From: a virus | IMG/VR virus record: IMGVR_UViG_3300045988_142509 | Reading direction: 5' to 3' (one strand) | Length of the DNA stretch: 49,561 nucleotides | In this document: one piece after another, positions 1,576 through 49,561 of the stretch | Layout of the letters: every line of letters begins with the position of its first letter | Numbering within the stretch: position 1 is the first letter of the stretch | The notes under the pieces: generated by a model | Database searches by the model: none | Told to the model about the DNA's origin: nothing | What the model saw: the letters and a program-made list of their open reading frames with translations, nothing else | Made by a program: the position numbers and the translations under genes

Positions 1576-3351
1576 ATGGCAAGTTTAAGTAGTTGGTGGA
1601 GTTACGCAACAGGAAACGAATTTAACAGCAGAGGAGAAATTGATAATTGCGGAGTCGTACAAGGTTATTATCCTTTTGCAGGTCAGTGCGTAAGTCTTAT
1701 CCAAGGTTACATGAAATACAATGGTTGCACTGTATGCCCACGTGGTAATGCAATTGATTGGTGGAGAAACTTTAATTCTAATGGATTGAGTCAATACTTT
1801 ACTAAACAATCATCACCACAAAATGGGGATGTAGTAGTAACTAATGCAGACCCTAATTATGGTCATATCGGAATCTATAAAGACGGTCAGTTGCTACAGC
1901 AAAATTACGCAAATTATCCGTATGCAAGATTTTTACCTTTGAGTGTCAGTGGAAGTCCATACGGATACCTCAGACCGAAATTTTTATCTAGCTACAGTGA
2001 CAGTCAATTAATCAATGAACACGCTTATGCAACACTTAAGTTTGATGTACAAAAGCGTAGAGATACACCTACAGGATTAGCCGTAGAAACGCTTAAAGCA
2101 GGTCGCAAGCTCGAATATACGCAGAAGTGGGTAGGTGACGGTCATAGATATATCTCGTGGGTAGAACATCAAGCAGATGGTCATAGCTACAGATACTTTG
2201 TTGCTGTCAATGGAAACGAACAAGGCACAGAGCCTTGGGCAACTTTTGAACCGCTTGAACAGAAAGTAGATTTGACCGAAGAACATGGTTGGGCTAAAGC
2301 TAAAGTAGACCAAATTAATATCCGTAAAGGTTCAGTCGATGGTCAGTCTGTAGGATTAGTTAACAGTGGTGATGTTATCGAGTATCAATATAAATGTGTC
2401 ACAGATTCTCATAGATATATCGTCAAGAAAAACGACGGAGAAATGCTCTATATTGCTTGTTCTCCAACACCTAACCGAAGTACTGAATGGTTCGATTTTT
2501 ACGCCGAGAACCCCGTTAAAACGGACGACAGCACGAATAAAGATGATAAGCCAAGTGATAAGCCTAATGATAAACCAGATAAAGGCACTATCGACATGAG
2601 CAACGTCAAACATTGGGGTGTTGATATCTCGGAACATAATGCCAAAGACTTGGATTTAACACAATGGGATTTTGTTATTATCCGTGCATCTTGGGGTACA
2701 AATACAGACAAGTACTTTAGATATTTTGTTGATGTGTGCGAAAAGAATAAAATCCCATTTGGGGTGTATCACTACTCTTACGCAATTGATAAAGAATCTA
2801 GTGATGCAGAAACACAATACTTTTTAGATACTATAAAAGGATTGAATCCACCACTTGGTGTTTGGTTTGATATGGAAGATGCAGATGGTTATAAAAAGAA
2901 AAAAGGTGTTTTAGATAAGGAACACGTGTTAGAATTTACCAAAAACTTTTGTAGCAAAGTAAAAGCAGAGGGATACTATACAGGTATCTATGCAAGCACA
3001 TGGTGGTTTGATAATTGGTTGAACGAGGGATTAGATGATTATGACAAGTGGGTAGCCGAATGGGGTGCTAATGATGGATACTATAACAGCGATACTTCCA
3101 ATCGAGGTACAATCCATCAATACACGTCTATAGATACTAAAACAGGTACAAATATTGATAAAAACGCAATGTATGTAGACTTTGACCACTACAAAGTTGA
3201 TAAACCAAGCGACAAGCCTAACGATGATAAACCTAGTGATAATCCTAGTGATAGTAATAATAATAGTGAACTTAATAATACATTAAAAGAAACTAACGGA
3301 TTGTTAAAAACTATTATCAAATTTATTAAAAAGATTTTCAATCTTAAATAA
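1576..3351 (+). CDS. Endolysin: N-terminal CHAP, two central SH3b(SH3_5)-like wall-binding repeats, C-terminal GH25 muramidase
   Basis: CHAP Cys/His signature (NCGVVQGYYPFAGQCVSLIQGY ... NYGHIGIY). Repeats HRYISWVEHQADGHSYRYFV and SHRYIVKKNDGEMLYIA. GH25 motifs WGVDISEHN..FVIIRASWG..GVYHYSY..WFDMED. D/K/P-rich linkers. RBS AAGGGGGA. Confidence 0.85.
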   Translation: MASLSSWWSYATGNEFNSRGEIDNCGVVQGYYPFAGQCVSLIQGYMKYNGCTVCPRGNAIDWWRNFNSNGLSQYFTKQSSPQNGDVVVTNADPNYGHIGIYKDGQLLQQNYANYPYARFLPLSVSGSPYGYLRPKFLSSYSDSQLINEHAYATLKFDVQKRRDTPTGLAVETLKAGRKLEYTQKWVGDGHRYISWVEHQADGHSYRYFVAVNGNEQGTEPWATFEPLEQKVDLTEEHGWAKAKVDQINIRKGSVDGQSVGLVNSGDVIEYQYKCVTDSHRYIVKKNDGEMLYIACSPTPNRSTEWFDFYAENPVKTDDSTNKDDKPSDKPNDKPDKGTIDMSNVKHWGVDISEHNAKDLDLTQWDFVIIRASWGTNTDKYFRYFVDVCEKNKIPFGVYHYSYAIDKESSDAETQYFLDTIKGLNPPLGVWFDMEDADGYKKKKGVLDKEHVLEFTKNFCSKVKAEGYYTGIYASTWWFDNWLNEGLDDYDKWVAEWGANDGYYNSDTSNRGTIHQYTSIDTKTGTNIDKNAMYVDFDHYKVDKPSDKPNDDKPSDNPSDSNNNSELNNTLKETNGLLKTIIKFIKKIFNLK

Positions 3352-3356
3352 AAAGC

Positions 3357-3384
3357 AAAGCCTACGATTATGTAGGCTTTTTTT
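3357..3384 (+). terminator. Rho-independent terminator after the endolysin
   Basis: 9-bp stem AAAGCCTAC/GTAGGCTTT, 6-nt loop, then T7. Confidence 0.65.
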
Positions 3385-3400
3385 ATGGATTTGACTCAAA

Positions 3401-3612
3401 ATTTAAAAAATCACTATATATTTTATTAAGTATTTTATTTATTAGTATTTTGTTTATTAGTATTTATTTGTGGCTGATTTTCCGTGCACCGAACTTCCGT
3501 GCACCGATTTTCCGTCCACGGTAATTTGCCATACGGTTTCTCATAATTGAAAAAATCACTATATATTATTAAGTATTTTATTTATTAGTATATTGATTTG
3601 TTAGTATATTTA
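3401..3612. repeat. Composite repeat. Direct repeats of about 65 bp (3401-3468 and 3545-3612) flank an inverted copy (3443-3546) of the rep-gene iteron block at 10954-11058.
   Basis: The reverse complement of 3443-3546 matches 10954-11058 essentially base for base. That segment holds three 15-bp iterons ACGGAA(A/G)(A/T)TCGGTGC-like plus AATACTAATAAA repeats. Confidence 0.8.
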
Positions 3613-3711
3613 TATACGTCCCAATTTTCTATATCTTAATTTTTAAGATATAGGTTTTGAAGATATAGGTTTTTGGTAAGAAGAAAACAAAAAATCTACT
3701 TTGTTTGTGTA

Positions 3712-3740
3712 TTGCCTAATATACGTTATTTTGGTATAAT
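3712..3740 (+). promoter_or_regulatory. Strong sigma-A promoter with extended -10 (TTGCCT - 17 nt - TGgTATAAT)
   Basis: -35 TTGCCT at 3712-3717, TG at 3732-3733, -10 TATAAT at 3735-3740. No ORF lies downstream. Confidence 0.6.
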
Positions 3741-3746
3741 TCACTG

Positions 3747-4292
3747 GTAAACAACAAATGAACTCAGTGATAAACCGTGTGCAACATGGCTGAGAAACTT
3801 CGTTAGTGTTGTGGAATGTCCAAGGATACTTGGTCTGAAAGCAAAGTCATAGGTGCGAACTTATGACATAGGTGTAACGAACTGAAACATGAAGTTGTGC
3901 ATAGTACTAGACAGGCTAAGGTCACTTAGGTATCGTCAGCGTAATAGACGCTACAGTGTAGAAGAATCCAAGTAAGGCATGATGTGGGAGCTTATGTAAA
4001 CCTTGGAATCCCAACAAGCTGATTAGCCTTGATGTTGTGAAAGCAACTATAAGATACCGAGTAAGTGCCACTGCGGAATGGCTAAGAAAGTTTAATTGTA
4101 ACCTAATGGAATCGTATGATTCTGTTTATATTCCCTAAGCCAGTTGGTGGTGTAGGACAATCCTACCTATGATAAACGTCTACAATTAGCAAAGAATCGC
4201 TATCTTTGTTAGGGATTGTAGGTACATGGTTGCCGAATAAGTTAACCATAGTATGTGTATGTGGAGACACGCAAACGTTGTTTATTATTTTT
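3747..4292 (+). ncRNA. Large structured non-coding RNA candidate (ROOL/GOLLD-class ornate phage RNA). 3' end uncertain; read-through to the terminator at 4570 is possible.
   Basis: About 550 nt with no ORF over 60 aa in any frame. Visibly GC-enriched against an AT-rich background. Many local hairpins (GTCATAGG..TTATGAC, ATGGTTGCCGAATAAGTTAACCAT, TAGGACAATCCTA) and long-range complements (CCCTAAGCC ... GTTAGGGATT). Sits in the lysin-integrase accessory slot downstream of a strong promoter. Confidence 0.45.
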
Positions 4293-4535
4293 TAGGTGTC
4301 AAACCTAGTTTACTTTGCATTCTTTGGAAAAGTACATTGAGCAATCAATGTATTTTTTTATTGCTTTGTTTGTGTACCTATACTAGTATTAATTTGTAGG
4401 AACAATATTTATAATAATATGTCTCTAAAATCTATAACTCTCTAACCATTACTAACATAACATTGAATTTCACTTATTATTGTTTCTACAGATTTTCCTA
4501 TGCTAAGATACCTCACTTAGTTAATTTCATTTTAA

Positions 4536-4570
4536 ACCATTAAGAACTTGCTGAACTTAGTGGTTTTTTT
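4536..4570 (+). terminator. Rho-independent terminator in ORF-free DNA
   Basis: AACCATTAAG..CTTAGTGGTT 10-bp stem with one G-U pair, then T7. Confidence 0.5.
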
Positions 4571-4943
4571 ATGTTTTACTTTTCCTATAAATGTGGTATT
4601 CTTTAAAAGACTTAAGATTAAGTATTTGGCTTAGGTCGACGTTTCGAAAATTGCATTTGTTTGGGGAAAAGGGATTGTGATTGGCAATCTCTTTTTTCTT
4701 TATATGAAATAAATAAGTGCTATAATAAAGATAATGTTGGACATACTATTGATTTACGTAGCAACGGTTTTGACACGAGCCGAATGTTATCGTTAATTCG
4801 CTCATTGGAGTGATTGATAATAAAAGTCTTATAAAAATAAACTAGTCTTATATACTTTCGAGTATATTTGGAAGTTTACGTATATAAGAACCCGACGAGA
4901 TTTAGCCGTTGGAGTGTCAGGTAGCAATAAATGTCCACACAAT

Positions 4944-4965
4944 GGCTCGTAAGCGAGCCTTTTTT
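4944..4965 (+). terminator. Rho-independent terminator in ORF-free DNA
   Basis: GGCTCG TAAG CGAGCC then T6. Possible extended -10 TGcTATAAT at 4718-4726 upstream. Confidence 0.5.
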
Positions 4966-5079
4966 CTTTGCTTACTTTAAATGTGTACTTTTTAGTGTAT
5001 ACTAAAAAAGAGTTAGTACGTGAAGAATACTCCGCTTTTGGTTTCTTTTTTTCCATGTTTTTTTGATACTAAAAGTTTT

Positions 5080-5109
5080 TTGCATTGATTTTTGTTTGTC
5101 ATATATAAT
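5080..5109 (+). promoter_or_regulatory. Sigma-A promoter TTGCAT - 18 nt - TATAAT
   Basis: -35 at 5080-5085, -10 at 5104-5109. Followed about 70 nt later by a terminator and then int. Confidence 0.45.
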
Positions 5110-5115
5110 TTACTC

Positions 5116-5181
5116 CTCTAAAGATAAAGACTACGTGCTAACTCCACTCGTGCTTTCCCATGCAGATTTGCATGGGTTTTT
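5116..5181 (+). ncRNA. Candidate 65-nt sRNA, or terminating leader/attenuator, immediately upstream of int
   Basis: Bracketed by the 5080 promoter and the 5157-5181 terminator. CU-rich anti-SD-like motifs CUCCUC and CUCCAC. No ORF. Confidence 0.3.
5157..5181 (+). terminator. Rho-independent terminator
   Basis: CCCATGCA GATT TGCATGGG 8-bp stem then T5. Confidence 0.6.
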
Positions 5182-5252
5182 ATTTAGATGTATGATTGAT
5201 ATGTATCGTATGATACACTCCGATTTTGACAGGTAGCACGGATTGGAGAAAC

Positions 5253-6371
5253 ATGGCAATACGTAAAAGGAAAAATAAAAGTGGAATTGTGTATGAAGTA
5301 TACATATCGTACACAAAGGATGGTATTAAAAGAAGATATCAAAAGAGTGGATTTAAAACTAAAGAAAAAGCATTAGATTTTGAAGAAAAAAAGATTTTTG
5401 AATTACTGGAAAAAAGAGAATTAAAAAACGAAAGTGAACTTACTCTAAATGCAATATGGGATGAATTTTTAGAAACAAACGAACAAAAATACAGCAAGAA
5501 TACTTTGTATAATACAAAAAAAGATAAAAGATATCTGAATCCAAATTATGATAAGTATTGCAATACTGATTGTGTGATTGGAAACATGAATATAAAAGAT
5601 ATTGATTATCGTATCTTGCAGAATTTTTTTAATTCAAGGTCGTGCAAAGGCATTGAAACTAACAAAAGCATTAAAAAATCATTAAACAGGGTTTATGAAT
5701 ATGCTTTAAAAGTTGGATATGTGGATAAAAACCCGATACAGTGGATAAATGTAAGTGGTGTAGAAAATAAGCATGATAAAACGGATATATCTGATTATGA
5801 TTTATATATCCTTTTAGATAAGCTGCATAACGATAATACACACAAGTCTATGTGTTATTACATAGCTATACAAATTGCACTTAATAGTGGTTTGAGAAGA
5901 GAAGAAGTGTTGGCATTAAACAAGAATGACATAGATTTTGAAAATAACATTATTAATGTGAATAAAGTTTTAGTAACTAAAGGATTAAAGAAAAAAGAAT
6001 TCTATACTACAACTAAGATGAAAAGTGCAAAATCAAAAGCAATTCTTCCGTTATCCAAAAAATTAAAAACAGTTTTGATTGATTGGTTTGAAATGAACAG
6101 TCATGATATCGTTGTTTGTGATAAAAATGGAATGCATGTTAACCCAGATTCTATGTGTAATTATTTACGCAAACTTTCAAAAAAGCTTGGAATACATTTT
6201 ACTTTCCACGAATTAAGACACACATATGGAACTAGGTTGGTTTCTAGCGGATTAGAATTGGCTATGGTAAGGGAACTGATGCGACATGATTCAATCAACA
6301 CTACTTTAAAATTTTATAACCATATAAATTTAGAAAAAAAGAAAAAAGCAATTGATAGCGTTTTTGGTTAG
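5253..6371 (+). CDS. int: Tyrosine integrase (phage integrase family site-specific recombinase)
   Basis: C-terminal catalytic signature HELRHTYGTRLV...LMRHDSINTTLKFY (R..H-x-x-R...Y). RBS GGAGAA before ATG 5253. The track ORF starts at an upstream TTG at 5226 with no SD. Adjacent to the att core. Confidence 0.85.
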   Translation: MAIRKRKNKSGIVYEVYISYTKDGIKRRYQKSGFKTKEKALDFEEKKIFELLEKRELKNESELTLNAIWDEFLETNEQKYSKNTLYNTKKDKRYLNPNYDKYCNTDCVIGNMNIKDIDYRILQNFFNSRSCKGIETNKSIKKSLNRVYEYALKVGYVDKNPIQWINVSGVENKHDKTDISDYDLYILLDKLHNDNTHKSMCYYIAIQIALNSGLRREEVLALNKNDIDFENNIINVNKVLVTKGLKKKEFYTTTKMKSAKSKAILPLSKKLKTVLIDWFEMNSHDIVVCDKNGMHVNPDSMCNYLRKLSKKLGIHFTFHELRHTYGTRLVSSGLELAMVRELMRHDSINTTLKFYNHINLEKKKKAIDSVFG

Positions 6372-6381
6372 AGATAAAAAA

Positions 6382-6413
6382 AGACGTTATCGAAAAGAAT
6401 AACGTCTGTTTTT
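6382..6413 (+). terminator. Rho-independent terminator after int
   Basis: GACGTTAT cgaaaaga ATAACGTC then TGTTTTT. Confidence 0.65.
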
Positions 6414-6417
6414 AGCT

Positions 6418-6460
6418 TGGCGTCCTGGGAGGGATTCGAACCCCCGACCGATGTGCGCCA
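6418..6460 (-). other. attP core: 3' terminal ~43 nt of a tRNA gene (T-arm GGGGG-TTCGAAT-CCCTC, acceptor 3' strand, discriminator G, CCA)
   Basis: Reverse complement reads ..GGTCGGGGGTTCGAATCCCTCCCAGGACGCCA. No complementary 5' half upstream, so this is an integration-site fragment rather than a complete tRNA. Confidence 0.6.
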
Positions 6461-6605
6461 TATTTAATGTGCTATGTTATGTTAAAATCGGTTTTAATAG
6501 GCTTTTTAGCCTATATACAAGCGTTTATAAGTTGATGTGCATAAATACTTATGTTTTGTGTATTTACGCTCTAAAGGCTTAAAAACGCTTGTTTTTTAGT
6601 GTGTC

Positions 6606-6848
6606 TTATAATGTGTCGTCATACACCCCTATTTTATCAACTAGATATTGTAGGGGTACTTTATAATATTCACTTAATTCTAAAGCTTCTGTTAATGTCA
6701 ATCCTTTACGTCCGTGTTCTTTTTCATAAAGCCAATTGCGACTGTATCCAAGTTCGTTGGATACTGTTTTAGCACTTTTGTATCCAAGTTGTTTTCTTAA
6801 ATTTCTTAATGCTTCACCCTGTTTATCATACTTACCCATCACAATCAC
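6606..6848 (-). CDS. XRE-family HTH DNA-binding protein (second repressor-like gene in the leftward operon)
   Basis: 80 aa. HTH segment SAKTVSNELGYSRNWLYEKEHG. Overlaps the upstream gene by 17 nt. Confidence 0.55.
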   Translation of the reverse strand: MIVMGKYDKQGEALRNLRKQLGYKSAKTVSNELGYSRNWLYEKEHGRKGLTLTEALELSEYYKVPLQYLVDKIGVYDDTL

Positions 6849-7092
6849 CTATCACATCAAACGCAATAGCAAATTCATTCAATGATGCACCATAAAATTT
6901 AAACAGCTTTATCGCATACTCTAAACGTACATCACAAAAGCCTAATTCTATGTTTGATACATAACTCGGTTGCATACCTATTTTCCTAGAAACGTCTTCG
7001 GCAGAATATCCTTTTTTATACTTTTTTCTTATGTATCTTAAAGCCTTACCTTGCCTAATCAAAGTCTGTTTAGATATTGTTTTCTTTGCCAT
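6832..7092 (-). CDS. CI-like XRE-family HTH repressor (short, no peptidase domain)
   Basis: 86 aa. HTH YSAEDVSRKIGMQPSYVSNIELG. Divergent from cro. RBS AAAGGAAG. Confidence 0.6.
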   Translation of the reverse strand: MAKKTISKQTLIRQGKALRYIRKKYKKGYSAEDVSRKIGMQPSYVSNIELGFCDVRLEYAIKLFKFYGASLNEFAIAFDVIGDCDG

Positions 7093-7253
7093 GCTTTAAC
7101 ACTTCCTTTCTTTAATTAAATTTTATATCAAGTACACAAAAAAGCAAACATATTATATGTAAATAGCTAATTTATTTATTAAATTTAATTAATATTTTTG
7201 TTGCATAAAGTACACAAAGGGTGTAATATGTAAGTATAGAAAAGGAGAAAGAT
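7093..7253. promoter_or_regulatory. Lysis/lysogeny switch: divergent promoters with two copies of the operator-like 12-mer AAGTACACAAAG
   Basis: Rightward TTGCAT(7201-7206) - 17 nt - TgTAATAT(7222-7229) with AAGTACACAAAG (7208-7219) in the spacer. Second copy AGTACACAAA at 7131-7140 just downstream of a leftward TATAAT. Confidence 0.55.
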
Positions 7254-7475
7254 ATGGTGAAAAAAAATAAAATCACATTAGCAGAAGCGATGGATTGTAG
7301 TGGATTAAAAACTGAATTCATAGCAAAAAATGTCGGGGTATCACGTCAAACAATTTATAACTACAAACATGGACACGTTGATATTCCATACTCTAGACTT
7401 GTAAAGTTGTGCAAAATTTTGGGGGTGGCTGTAACAAGCATTGACTATAATTACACAAACAAAGTAGATGGCTAG
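7254..7475 (+). CDS. Cro-like HTH regulator
   Basis: 73 aa. HTH KTEFIAKNVGVSRQTIYNYKHG. RBS AAGGAGAAAG. First rightward gene. Confidence 0.6.
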   Translation: MVKKNKITLAEAMDCSGLKTEFIAKNVGVSRQTIYNYKHGHVDIPYSRLVKLCKILGVAVTSIDYNYTNKVDG

Positions 7476-10678: not shown

Positions 10679-11440
10679 ATGTCAGTGATTAGAGTAAATA
10701 ACACTAAAGGATTTACAGTGATGAGCAATTATCACTTTCAAGATAAAGGAATCTCACTAAAAGCAAAAGGACTTCTTGGTTTGATGCTTTCTTTACCTAG
10801 CAATTGGGATTATTCGATAAACGGATTAGTTGCGATTGTAAAGGAAAATAAAGCAGCAGTTCAATCCGCACTTAAAGAACTTGAAGAACATAAGTATTTA
10901 AAACGTACAAGAGTTCAAGACGAAACAGGAAGATTCGATTACGTCTACGATATTTATGAGAAACCGTATGGCAAATTACCGTGGACGGAAAATCGGTGCA
11001 CGGAAGTTCGGTGCACGGAAAATCAGCCACAAATAAATACTAATAAACAAAATACTAAAGAATTAAATACTAATAAAGAAAAAACTATAAAAAAAGAAAG
11101 TATTGATTCAGTTATCCACAATTACACAGACAGTGAAGAACTAGTTAGTGCTTTGTTGGATTTTAAAGAAATGCGTAAAGCACTGAAAAAACCGCTAACG
11201 CCAAGAGCAATGAAACAATGCTTAAAAAAACTTGATGGATTAAATGAAGAGTCCAAGGTTAAAGTAGTGCTTCAATCGGTAGAACATGGATGGCTGACAT
11301 TTTATGAATTGAAAGATATAAAGTCGTTTACTAAAAACGGAACAACAGTTCCGCAATGGTACACAAAAACCGAACAACATGCAGCTAGTGATGAATTGAA
11401 AGATGAAGTAGAAGATATGCTTAGAAATCTAGGAGGTTAA
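10679..11440 (+). CDS. Replisome organizer / DnaD-like replication initiator with ori iterons in the inter-domain linker
   Basis: N-terminal winged-helix-like FTVMSNYHFQDKGISLKAKGLLGLMLSLPSNWDYSINGL. Low-complexity linker TENRCTEVRCTENQPQINTNKQNTKELNTNKEK encoded by the iterons. C-terminus LTPRAMKQCLKKL...SVEHGWL. RBS AAGGAGAA. Confidence 0.65.
   Translation: MSVIRVNNTKGFTVMSNYHFQDKGISLKAKGLLGLMLSLPSNWDYSINGLVAIVKENKAAVQSALKELEEHKYLKRTRVQDETGRFDYVYDIYEKPYGKLPWTENRCTEVRCTENQPQINTNKQNTKELNTNKEKTIKKESIDSVIHNYTDSEELVSALLDFKEMRKALKKPLTPRAMKQCLKKLDGLNEESKVKVVLQSVEHGWLTFYELKDIKSFTKNGTTVPQWYTKTEQHAASDELKDEVEDMLRNLGG
10954..11058. repeat. Putative phage origin: three 15-bp iterons (10985-11028) plus AT-rich AATACTAATAAA repeats, inside the rep ORF
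   Basis: ACGGAAAATCGGTGC / ACGGAAGTTCGGTGC / ACGGAAAATCAGCC. An inverted duplicate lies at 3443-3546. Confidence 0.6.
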
Positions 11441-23907: not shown

Positions 23908-25528
23908 TCCACAAGAGCGTACATTAGCTTTATGCGAAAGTGCCACACCACACAATAAGCTTAAAACGTGGTTTAGAGGATATATTCCAGAGCATTACAA
24001 GAGATTGAATATTGATATGGACGAAGCTAGAGAACTAGCTTTAAAAGGCGTTGCCGTGGTCAATGCAAGCTTTGGTGAGATGACATATTTCACACAATCT
24101 CTTATCGTTGGCGCATGTTTGTTCAGTAAGTATAAGACAATCACAATCGTAACCACTTCACAATATGGAAAATCATGGACCATTTCCATGGTTGCTATAC
24201 TTTTGGCAAAATTGCAAAAAAAAGACGTAAATATAGTGGCCGGTAAAGATGATATTACTAAAGTCATAATGAAAAATGTACTAAGTCATCTTCAAAACGC
24301 AGATGATTCAATTAAGAAATCACTTTTGGAATACAGAGATAAGATTGATAAATTGAATTCAAGTGTAACAAAAGAAAGTCTGTCGTTTGTTTCTGGTGGT
24401 TCTATCAGTAGTGGTACGTTGGGTTCTACATCTAGCGACCATAAGAAGAGTTCATCCGCTATTGGTCGTGGTGGTGTTTATATTCATGATGAAGCAAGTC
24501 TTACAAGTGATGATGCATTTGCTGAAATTGGTAGACGTGACTTCTCAAACGTAGATGGTGAAAGAGAATTGCTTGTGCAGATATCTAACCCCCATCAAAA
24601 AGGTCAATTTTATGATAAATTGGTAGAAGAAAATCCGCCAAAAGACTCATTGATTATTTGGATGGATGTTAGAACAGTTCTAGAAGAAGGTCGTATTCCT
24701 AGTATAGAACGTGTGAAAGAATCTGACTTCTTTAAAAATGATTCCACATGTCAAAGATATTTCTTGTGTGAACTTGAAACAGATGGTGATACATCCATGT
24801 TCAAGAACATCCAATACAAAGATATTGATAGTCTGATGGAATTACAAGGATTTAAATGGTTTATCGGGCTTGATAGTGCTTATAAAGGTAAAGATAGTAT
24901 CATTCTAACTCTTACAGGTATTAATGATATGGGTCAAGTATTGGTTGCGGACATGTATGAAATGAACAAAGGCAAAAAATGGATTGATGGTGTTACAAGT
25001 GAAGACATCATAAAGTCTGTTTTAAAGGTCGTAGACCAATTTGGTGTGCGTATGATATGTGTGGACGTTGGATATGGTGTTTGGCTTGTTGAGGGGCTTG
25101 CAAAGCACTCCTATGCCCATGGATTCCGTGTTGTCGGAATAAACTTTGGAGCAGGTACAACTCCCGACAGAAAAAAGATGAGTCATTTCTCTGCTAAGTA
25201 CGGAAGTAATATGCGTGCTGAATTACACCTCGATTTACAAGAGCTGATGACTAGCAGAAAGATATGGTTTACAACACCTATTGCCAAGATTCTAGCACCA
25301 CAGATGGTTGCAGTGCGTAGCATAAACAAAAGCGGTGGAAAAATTGGTATAATACCTAAGGATGAGATAAAACATATCATAAAACATTCACCCGATGAAT
25401 TAGATAGTACGCTTTTATCTATCCATGCACTTTTGTTATATATATTAAATGTAGGCAATGATTTACCTGTTTATGATAAAAATTACACAAACAAAGTAGA
25501 TAATCCTAATGAAAAGGAGCAGCATTAA
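23900..25528 (+). CDS. terL: Terminase large subunit (ATPase plus RNaseH-like nuclease)
   Basis: Walker A-like TSQYGKSWTISMV, Walker B VYIHDEASL, nuclease-domain WFIGLDSAYKGKDSIILTL. Confidence 0.8.
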   Translation: MSSPQERTLALCESATPHNKLKTWFRGYIPEHYKRLNIDMDEARELALKGVAVVNASFGEMTYFTQSLIVGACLFSKYKTITIVTTSQYGKSWTISMVAILLAKLQKKDVNIVAGKDDITKVIMKNVLSHLQNADDSIKKSLLEYRDKIDKLNSSVTKESLSFVSGGSISSGTLGSTSSDHKKSSSAIGRGGVYIHDEASLTSDDAFAEIGRRDFSNVDGERELLVQISNPHQKGQFYDKLVEENPPKDSLIIWMDVRTVLEEGRIPSIERVKESDFFKNDSTCQRYFLCELETDGDTSMFKNIQYKDIDSLMELQGFKWFIGLDSAYKGKDSIILTLTGINDMGQVLVADMYEMNKGKKWIDGVTSEDIIKSVLKVVDQFGVRMICVDVGYGVWLVEGLAKHSYAHGFRVVGINFGAGTTPDRKKMSHFSAKYGSNMRAELHLDLQELMTSRKIWFTTPIAKILAPQMVAVRSINKSGGKIGIIPKDEIKHIIKHSPDELDSTLLSIHALLLYILNVGNDLPVYDKNYTNKVDNPNEKEQH

Positions 25529-48962: not shown

Positions 48963-49561
48963 ATGGCATGTGAAAAATATAAATCCTATCAGAAACCCGA
49001 AAATTTAAAACATAAGCTACATTTTACAGGTTCGTCTACTGTATCTTATGACGGGTCGAATGATGTTACTGTAAATATTCCAAGCAGTGGTGATGCCACT
49101 AATGGTTCGTTGCTGATTAAAGCAGACAGCAATGACTATATATCGTTTGACGGTGGTGAAAATAAGAGTGTTAACTTGCGTAGTGGTAGCAATGTAAGAA
49201 TTGATAAAGCTACTACAGGTGGTGAAAACTTGGATTTGACTATCAACGCAACAGATACGAAATATGATGTTGCTACACCAAGTAAATCCGGACTAATGTC
49301 TTCAACTGATAAAACTAAGTTGGACGGAATTGAAGCTGGTGCTAACAACTATACCTACACTCTTCCAACAGCAACAGCAACTACATTAGGTGGTGTTACT
49401 ATTGGAGATAACATCACTACAACAGGTTCTAAAATCAGCATTACAAAAGGAAACGTTACTAAAGCTTTAGGTTATACACCAAGTGCAACAGATACGAAAT
49501 ATGATGTTGCTACACCAAGTAAATCCGGACTAATGTCTTCAACTGATAAAACTAAGTTGGA
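48963..49561 (+). CDS. Tail fibre / receptor-binding protein, 5' portion (continues into 1-940)
   Basis: ATG 48963 after AAAGGAG. Frame is open to the window end and contiguous with base 2 onward when the 36-bp terminal overlap is merged. Confidence 0.6.
   Translation, partial: MACEKYKSYQKPENLKHKLHFTGSSTVSYDGSNDVTVNIPSSGDATNGSLLIKADSNDYISFDGGENKSVNLRSGSNVRIDKATTGGENLDLTINATDTKYDVATPSKSGLMSSTDKTKLDGIEAGANNYTYTLPTATATTLGGVTIGDNITTTGSKISITKGNVTKALGYTPSATDTKYDVATPSKSGLMSSTDKTKL
49251..49561. repeat. 237-bp tandem repeat in the tail-fibre gene. Copies start at 49251, 49488 (this one continues across the junction to base 199), 200 and 437; the last, at 437, is partial.
   Basis: Units are base-for-base identical. 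Window bases 1-36 equal 49526-49561. Confidence 0.85.

Follow-up and report, generated by a model that had tools for sequence, protein, structure and literature searches.

A divergent ROOL RNA in a tRNA-free cassette of a temperate gut phage

Introduction

The ROOL RNA family was described by Weinberg et al. 2017 (PMC5737381), and its members are often found near tRNA genes (PMC5737381, PMC12286853). ROOL RNAs fold free of protein and assemble into hollow dihedral homo-octamers, or hexamers in the case of L. salivarius ROOL; the cage measures about 28 nm across, persists at nanomolar concentration and encloses the linker (PMC12286853, PMC12990946, PMC12515178). Cryo-EM structures have been solved for three ROOLs (env-120, E. 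faecalis and L. salivarius), and in the solved structures the linker is disordered within the cage (PMC12286853, PMC12990946). In L. salivarius the RNA reaches roughly the level of 16S rRNA, and it is non-essential. It has been proposed that the cages encapsulate tRNA, ribosomes or other cargo (PMC12286853, PMC12990946, PMC12515178).

GOLLD (RF01998) is a comparable RNA, large and ornate, which phages and prophages carry, in many cases close to tRNAs. Like ROOL, it assembles into a cage made of RNA alone with a linker inside (PMC12286853), but it is about 800 nt long, and its sequence and fold are unrelated to those of ROOL.

The subject of this work is a window of 49,561 nt, the whole stretch of DNA that was analysed, and in particular the slot between its lysin and integrase genes. 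How does this locus compare with described cargo units? Phage ‘moron’ cassettes are autonomous promoter-gene-terminator units that temperate phages carry between their lysis genes and their attachment sites. The locus resembles them in its position, in the terminator that follows the lysin, in having a sigma-70-type promoter and a terminator of its own, and in a GC content distinct from that of its flanks. It differs in cargo, which is a large non-coding RNA, whereas that of a moron is a protein-coding gene. There is little doubt that positions ~3746-4292 of the plus strand constitute a ROOL non-coding RNA gene, present as an autonomous moron-type cassette of an uncultured temperate gut Bacillota phage. 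The RNA is a new, divergent member of the already described ROOL family, in an atypical, tRNA-free setting.

Identity of the RNA gene

The whole window was scanned with Rfam 15 at gathering thresholds, and ROOL was the sole family above them. The match to ROOL (RF03087) scores 212.1 bits (E 1.2e-46), over double the gathering score of 99.1, and takes in model positions 1-574 of 574, non-truncated. A second, permissive scan of 3300-7300 (E <= 1) gave nothing credible besides ROOL. The copy is 552 nt long; the mean for the family is 581.

3739-4290, plus strand: ROOL RNA, full length, by the Rfam covariance model; RNA body probably ~3746-4292

The initial annotation had pointed to a GC-enriched structured RNA with no open reading frame over 60 aa, and on all three counts it was right. 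The longest open reading frame overlapping 3712-4300, in any frame, is 49 aa, in keeping with the non-coding nature of ROOL. The GC content of 3739-4290 is 0.399, in the top 2.3% of all 552-nt windows (0.334 ± 0.030), and the intergenic DNA on the two sides has values of 0.256 and 0.304. The unconstrained fold of the stretch has a minimum free energy of -152.6 kcal/mol (z = -3.06).

The likeness to ROOL extends to the consensus secondary structure, pseudoknot, kissing loop, variable linker, lack of open reading frames and phage location, all of which match, and the core motifs AAUAGACGC, GCCUUGA, GAAUA and UCGCU are present. The differences are equally distinct. The copy is very divergent from other viral copies, the best blastn match being 71 nt at 80% among the matches listed, and neither its 7-bp pseudoknot (UCCCUAA/UUAGGGA) nor its kissing loop (UGGGA/UCCCA) recurs in that form among the matches listed. 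It also stands alone, as a promoter-terminator cassette between the lysin and the integrase of a temperate phage.

Secondary structure and covariation

The Rfam consensus structure, with helices P1 to P19, was projected onto the window via the cmscan alignment. Of 145 scorable consensus pairs, 116 are canonical, as against 56.6 ± 5.8 in 1000 shuffles, where the maximum was 77. Mismatches are concentrated in two helices, 3904-3922/4232-4254 and P17 (4178-4186/4215-4223), both of low posterior probability and both placed 1 nt out of register by the covariance-model alignment. With two 1-nt register corrections, 132 of 133 modelled pairs are canonical. The sole leftover mismatch, G3910.A4248, is a G-C pair in all four close relatives described below; since their 4248 A>C change turns G.A into G-C, the corrected register is supported. 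The main structural parts are:

3745-3755, plus strand: 5' strand of closing helix P1, partner 4277-4287; covariance-model alignment and unconstrained minimum free energy fold agree
3924-4066, plus strand: conserved core domain with AAUAGACGC, a short P7 hairpin, P8, GCCUUGA and a GAAA-capped hairpin
4128-4240, plus strand: 3' domain P15-P18 with L18 loop UCGCU (4197-4201) and GAAUA (4235-4239)

Do the helices of other viral ROOLs covary on this structure? A sample of at least 120 viral ROOL loci was drawn from IMG/VR by an exact-pattern scan for the core motif, AATAGACGC, 7-13 nt, GAANAATCC. A blastn comparison of the window ROOL with these motif-selected loci gave short core matches only, none of them close. 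Covariance models were then seeded from the window ROOL and near-identical relatives alone, with the structure taken from the window; these models span single domains, up to 143 nt. The first single-lineage model found 7 loci, and after one iteration (R2) there were 89 among the matches listed.

3924-4066, core (model R3): 90 other loci among the matches listed; 95.7% of cells paired, 68.9% when shuffled, 33-45% in slid controls; both sides changed in 32 of 36 pairs
4128-4240, 3' domain (model R2, one iteration): 89 other loci among the matches listed; 84% of cells paired, 68.9% when shuffled, 30-48% in slid controls; both sides changed in 22 of 23 pairs

The fraction paired is inflated in both models because the alignments are fitted to the model's structure, but the counts of compensated pairs and the slid controls still provide convincing support for the ROOL fold. 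For core and 3' domain alike, the observed covariation values were reached by 0 of 500 shuffles. Thus homologues with covarying pairs, which the initial annotation had named as a test of its proposal, do exist: the helices of about 90 related viral loci, among the matches listed, covary on the structure of the window ROOL.

Tertiary contacts and linker

The contacts that lie outside the helices are as follows, together with the linker.

4132-4138 and 4209-4215, plus strand: pseudoknot, UCCCUAA with UUAGGGA
3985-3989, plus strand: L8 loop UGGGA, one strand of the kissing loop, partner UCCCA at 4009-4013
4009-4013, plus strand: J8/6 segment UCCCA, partner of the L8 loop
4067-4131, plus strand: variable linker, aligned at low posterior to the model's unstructured insert

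A long-range pairing of CCCTAAGCC with GTTAGGGATT had been noticed earlier from the letters of the sequence. The pairing is real, and it is the ROOL pseudoknot: it aligns to the family pseudoknot in which the linker's 3' flank pairs with the internal loop J17/18. The family consensus is UCUGA/UCAGA, with the variants UCCGA/UCGGA, GCUGAA/UUCAGC and AUCUGA/UCAGAU among the matches listed; relative to consensus, three of five pairs in the window copy are doubly compensated.

The L8 and J8/6 strands are complementary and correspond to the kissing loop that cryo-EM identifies as a conserved inter-subunit bridge (B4) of the ROOL cage (PMC12286853). Across 59 distinct ROOL sequences, among the matches listed, the pair takes 19 forms, e.g. 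UGAGA/UCUCA, UGGCA/UGCCA and GUGACA/UGUCAC. The mean length of its Watson-Crick helix, again among the matches listed, is 4.58, compared with 3.49 ± 0.12 when loops and junctions are permuted. The L18 loop of the window, UCGCU, is the majority form in the family; its self-complementary core is just 2 bp.

Promoter and terminators

The signals that bracket the RNA gene on either side are:

3357-3380, both strands: bidirectional terminator hairpin, 10-bp stem and T-run, closing the holin-lysin operon
3712-3740, plus strand: predicted extended -10 promoter of sigma-70 type, TTGCCT-17-TGgTATAAT, 10 of 12 hexamer matches plus TG
4328-4362 (stem 4328-4357), plus strand: terminator-like hairpin and U-run, dG -12 kcal/mol, z -4.88
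4534-4573, plus strand: second terminator-like hairpin and U7, dG -10.6, z -2.9

The promoter had been called in the initial annotation and was recovered as described there. Its predicted start (~3746-3748) coincides with the 5' strand of ROOL helix P1. It is among the two best sites of its region, and both hexamers are invariant in the ~97%-identical relatives (L121-L124). This AT-rich region has 11 promoter-like sites where 9.9 are expected, which is no enrichment, and thus the motif by itself is weak proof. The terminator at 3357-3380 would isolate the ROOL unit, shielding it from late transcription.

Where does the transcript end? The first convincing terminator had been placed at 4536-4570, but a nearer hairpin exists at 4328-4362. 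It is conserved in the relatives and was missed by a consensus scan because its stem has fewer than three G-C pairs. The 3' end is ambiguous between a U6 run at 4287-4292, right after P1, and the hairpins at 4328-4362 and 4534-4573; the ROOL transcription unit probably extends as far as the first of these hairpins.

The phage and its relatives

The window represents a temperate phage. Its first and last 273 nt are identical, which suggests a closed genome of ~49.3 kb, apparently complete. The gene order is holin, lysin, ROOL, integrase and then a tRNA-derived attP, and the location of the RNA between lysin and integrase, proposed at the outset, therefore stands.

953-1165: r1t-type holin; a baseplate or fibre protein is also on the lysin side
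1576-3351, plus strand: endolysin with CHAP and GH25 domains, left border of the slot
5226-6371, plus strand: tyrosine integrase (PF00589, 2e-26) with an arm-binding domain, right border of the slot

Other phage genes include divergent cI-like and Cro-like HTH genes, an ERF recombinase, RusA, a replication initiator, terminase, portal and tail genes. The closest relatives of the integrase are in human-gut MAGs: UMGS1585, 98% identical over the N-terminal 212 aa, and Massilimicrobiota, 46%. ROOL, the whole slot and a 158-nt element described below have no DNA match among INPHARED phages or PLSDB plasmids, and Lactococcus phage proteins share at most 24% identity with the large terminase; hence there is no cultured relative or annotation for this phage.

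A duplicated ori-like block and other repeats are found near the ROOL slot. A 13-nt direct repeat around the cassette, CTTTGTTTGTGTA, was considered as an insertion scar or target-site duplication. This was rejected because the repeat has four copies in the genome and the upstream copy is mutated in two relatives.

Four ~97%-identical phages keep the RNA; in these IMG/VR contigs, whose lysins are 94-97% identical, ROOL occupies the same slot. A MAG contig (L133; 4.3 kb, coverage 1.9, rearranged order) was left out of synteny because it may be chimeric. Nine of 12 paired-site substitutions in the close relatives keep pairing, and in L122 a double change, A3766-U3791 to G-C, preserves the pair. 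The linker varies at 10 of 65 positions (15%) between the ~97%-identical relatives, compared with 22 of 483 (4.6%) elsewhere. It thus evolves about three times faster than the rest of ROOL in these four phages.

Could the ROOL copy nonetheless be a decaying remnant, gained by recombination and no longer expressed or assembling? Its usual tRNA partners are missing and its flanks are recombinogenic, with the duplicated ori-like block, the mobile 158-nt element and the 13-mer recurring at both borders. Yet the RNA is full length, with all but one of its modelled pairs intact and invariant promoter hexamers, and both pseudoknot and kissing loop are maintained with compensatory changes. In the relatives, substitutions avoid or preserve paired sites and the linker drifts, which is the signature of purifying selection on ROOL. 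A non-functional remnant is therefore very improbable, and a ROOL gene under selection is the preferred reading.

The attachment site and tRNA genes

Beyond the integrase lies the following sequence.

6382-6406: bidirectional terminator after the attP core
6418-6460, minus strand: candidate attP core, the 3' part of a tRNA (T-arm GGUUCGAAUCC, acceptor strand, CCA)

The minus strand, ~45 nt past the integrase stop, reads ...GGUCGGGGGUUCGAAUCCCUCCCAGGACGCCA, and a 22-mer of the core is identical to part of tRNA-Met(cat) in L094. It is plausible that this tRNA 3' part is the attP core. A weak Rfam match raised tmRNA as the integration target, and this was rejected; the sequence is a tRNA 3' end, unlike tmRNA.

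Might the structured stretch instead be a cis-acting leader or regulator of the integrase, or structured attachment-site DNA? It is upstream of int on the same strand, with repeats upstream, and attP regions are often AT-rich, repeat-rich and free of open reading frames. Terminator-like hairpins, however, stand between ROOL and int, at 4328-4362 and 4534-4573 and again, before the integrase, at 4944-4959 and 5157-5176. The tRNA-derived attP core is downstream of int, and the ~90 homologues, among the matches listed, are elsewhere, mostly in tRNA arrays without an integrase. A role as leader or attachment site is accordingly even less probable than decay, and the stretch is best read as a ROOL gene with its own transcription unit.

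The tRNA setting of this gene is unusual. ARAGORN detected no tRNA or tmRNA gene in the 49,561-nt window, and the sole tRNA trace near ROOL is the 3' fragment in the attP core, 2.1 kb away. The earlier remark on tRNA context thus holds for a tRNA-derived att site and fails for tRNA genes nearby. In the sampled loci, tRNA genes are near ROOL in 55 of 60, among the matches listed, usually flanking it on the same strand. As the literature describes the association only as frequent (‘often’), the absence of tRNA genes does not exclude membership of the family. This locus shows that ROOL can persist without co-encoded tRNAs, and so a tRNA-centred functional model is unsupported in cis here.

Other large structured RNAs

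The class first proposed for the stretch was ROOL or GOLLD; the former stands, and GOLLD does not. That the stretch is another large structured RNA (GOLLD, OLE, HEARO/omega RNA or raiA) or a new ROOL-like class was a fair question when the initial annotation left the family unassigned, all candidates being large, ORF-free and GC-enriched and GOLLD also occurring in phage and tRNA contexts (PMC5737381), but it is the least probable reading and effectively refuted by the Rfam scans: GOLLD, OLE, HEARO and raiA have no match at gathering score in the whole window or at E <= 1 in 3300-7300, and ROOL has all its model positions matched, together with family-specific tertiary pairings and compensatory changes.

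A second RNA element in the slot

Comparison with the relatives exposed a unit of ~158 nt at 4763-4920, which in the window has a promoter-like site on one side and a strong terminator on the other. L121 and L123 have it ~30 nt past the ROOL 3' end, ahead of the terminator. It is absent from L122, and relative to the empty site in that phage the window shows a 6-nt duplication, GTAGCA. The MAG contig L133 has at least four copies. A minus-strand open reading frame here (4829-5056, 75 aa) is probably no gene: it is without a Pfam or PHROG match, and in relatives it is broken up, depending on whether they carry the mobile element.

The element has no Rfam family match. One of its 21-mers has exact matches in 38 IMG/VR stretches, which come from many samples, and 29 distinct copies align at 89% identity. 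The fold consists of five helices and a pseudoknot between a hairpin loop and the 3' tail (UGACAC with GUGUCA), with a minimum free energy z-score of -3.05. Of the cells, 98.6% are paired (shuffles 91.7%, slid controls 34-45%), and both sides have changed in 20 of 52 pairs (10.4 ± 1.6 in shuffles). The unit is probably an undescribed phage small RNA or mobile RNA element.

How is it related to ROOL? Wherever tRNAs and ROOL lie nearby, the element shares their strand, and it often heads tRNA/ROOL islands, also in unrelated large phages; the ROOL core is present in 8 of the 38 stretches that carry it. In a family of phages of >100 kb it lies ~130 nt upstream of an array of six tRNAs, ROOL and four tRNAs. 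RNAduplex comparisons with shuffles give no support to base pairing of the 158-nt RNA with the ROOL linker: p = 0.24 for the window, and L017 is just marginal (p = 0.03). A functional link between element and ROOL is only a possibility. That ROOL works in this phage lineage without any phage tRNA and in partnership with the 158-nt RNA, which could be a natural 3' extension of the cage RNA in the sister phages L121 and L123, seems rather unlikely. If the RNAs were coupled, the element might, for instance, be cargo, take part in assembly or processing, or act as the antitermination leader of structured-RNA operons, and a small tRNA-free temperate phage would then offer a minimal system for what ROOL cages do. 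This unclassified neighbour may be a more novel object than the ROOL copy itself.

Discussion

How might the window ROOL work? By its signals, the RNA would be transcribed from its own promoter, end at its own terminator and be expressed from the prophage. The transcript is predicted to fold with closing helix P1, multi-way junctions, the conserved core, a variable internal linker and the pseudoknot between linker flank and J17-18. By analogy with the solved structures, it would self-assemble without protein into a hollow homo-oligomeric cage, in which the L8/J8-6 kissing loop and the L18 loop would make contacts between subunits and the linker would face the interior. We infer transcription from its own promoter and the same assembly because the fold and contact motifs are retained. 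The cage would be an octamer, or a hexamer as in some members, since the family varies in this respect (PMC12990946). As a working guess, the RNA might act as a compartment or decoy to which cellular RNA or RNP binds or in which it is sheltered, to the benefit of phage or lysogen.

Very few natural RNAs are known to form a cage free of protein, and ROOL is among them. The window ROOL adds no new principle to this, but it is a useful specimen, being divergent, intact and part of a compact temperate phage of ~49 kb. A cassette with its own promoter and terminator suggests possible expression of ROOL from the prophage. The naturally compensated variants of two tertiary/quaternary contacts are usable for assembly experiments. 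Finally, the tRNA-free cassette separates ROOL from its usual tRNA arrays, which argues that phage tRNAs are not required in cis.

Repeated sequences around the ROOL gene

The promoter-terminator unit of the phage RNA gene ROOL is set among repeats, as listed here.

Repeats near ROOL and their distant copies
3395-3620: AT-rich duplicated block; inverted copy at 10954-11077
3646-3673 (+): AGATATAGGTTTT, two exact tandem copies, spacing 15 nt
3699-3711 and 4364-4376 (+): exact 13-mer CTTTGTTTGTGTA, two of four copies
7452-7464 and 25484-25496 (-): the other two copies of the 13-mer

The block, which contains three 15-nt tandem TTCCGTGCACCGA repeats, lies a short way upstream of the ROOL promoter, and 125 nt of it are repeated, inverted and at 96.8% identity, within the replication-initiator gene (10679-11440). 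This recurrence resembles an ori/iteron segment that is present a second time. The copy number of the block differs between close relatives of the phage, with one unit in L122 and extra in L124. The AGATATAGGTTTT pair precedes the ROOL -35 hexamer by ~40-65 nt, has no further exact copies in the genome and could serve as a binding site for a regulator. The ROOL unit itself is flanked by the plus-strand copies of the 13-mer; its four exact occurrences stand against an expectation of 0.29, and none of 100 shuffled sequences gave as many. A simple target-site duplication was considered for the 13-mer and rejected.

Candidate attachment site, lysogeny region and window ends

Features of these regions
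6382-6406: terminator, beside the candidate attP core
6418-6460 (-): tRNA 3' part (T-arm, acceptor strand, CCA), candidate attP core
1-510 and 49248-49561: ~237-nt tandem repeats, inside a fibre or baseplate gene

The tRNA 3' part is found immediately downstream of the integrase gene, and a 22-mer of it is identical to a piece of tRNA-Met(cat) in the compared sequence L094. As candidate attP core, it implies integration into a tRNA gene. Compared with window 5566-7005, L124 (IMGVR_UViG_3300045988_150968) has an integrase without its 3' half, no 80-aa regulator ORF and little of the cI-like repressor gene, and it retains ROOL. L124 may represent a lysogeny-defective deletion derivative with ROOL still present. 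The two ends of the window are identical over exactly 273 nt, consistent with a circularly closed assembly, and the fibre gene there is variable in repeat length.

A conserved RNA-like element downstream of ROOL

The element and its frame
4699-4726 (+): second extended -10 promoter-like site, TTTATA-16-TGcTATAAT
4763-4920 (+): ~158-nt RNA-like element; conserved, covarying and pseudoknotted
4944-4959 (+): strong terminator

The promoter-like site and the terminator bound a short plus-strand unit, which in the window phage holds the 158-nt element; the L122 counterpart of this frame is ~70 nt only, and the element is missing there. Copies are also present in L017, L019, L093, L121, L123, L124, L133 (a possibly chimeric MAG contig) and L136-L170, and 38 viral-contig stretches carry it. 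No Rfam family corresponds to it. Near-identical phages differ in where the element sits. Across its occurrences it frequently heads tRNA arrays, and tRNAs and ROOL share its orientation. What might it represent? One possibility is a phage small RNA that has escaped description; another is a mobile RNA element.
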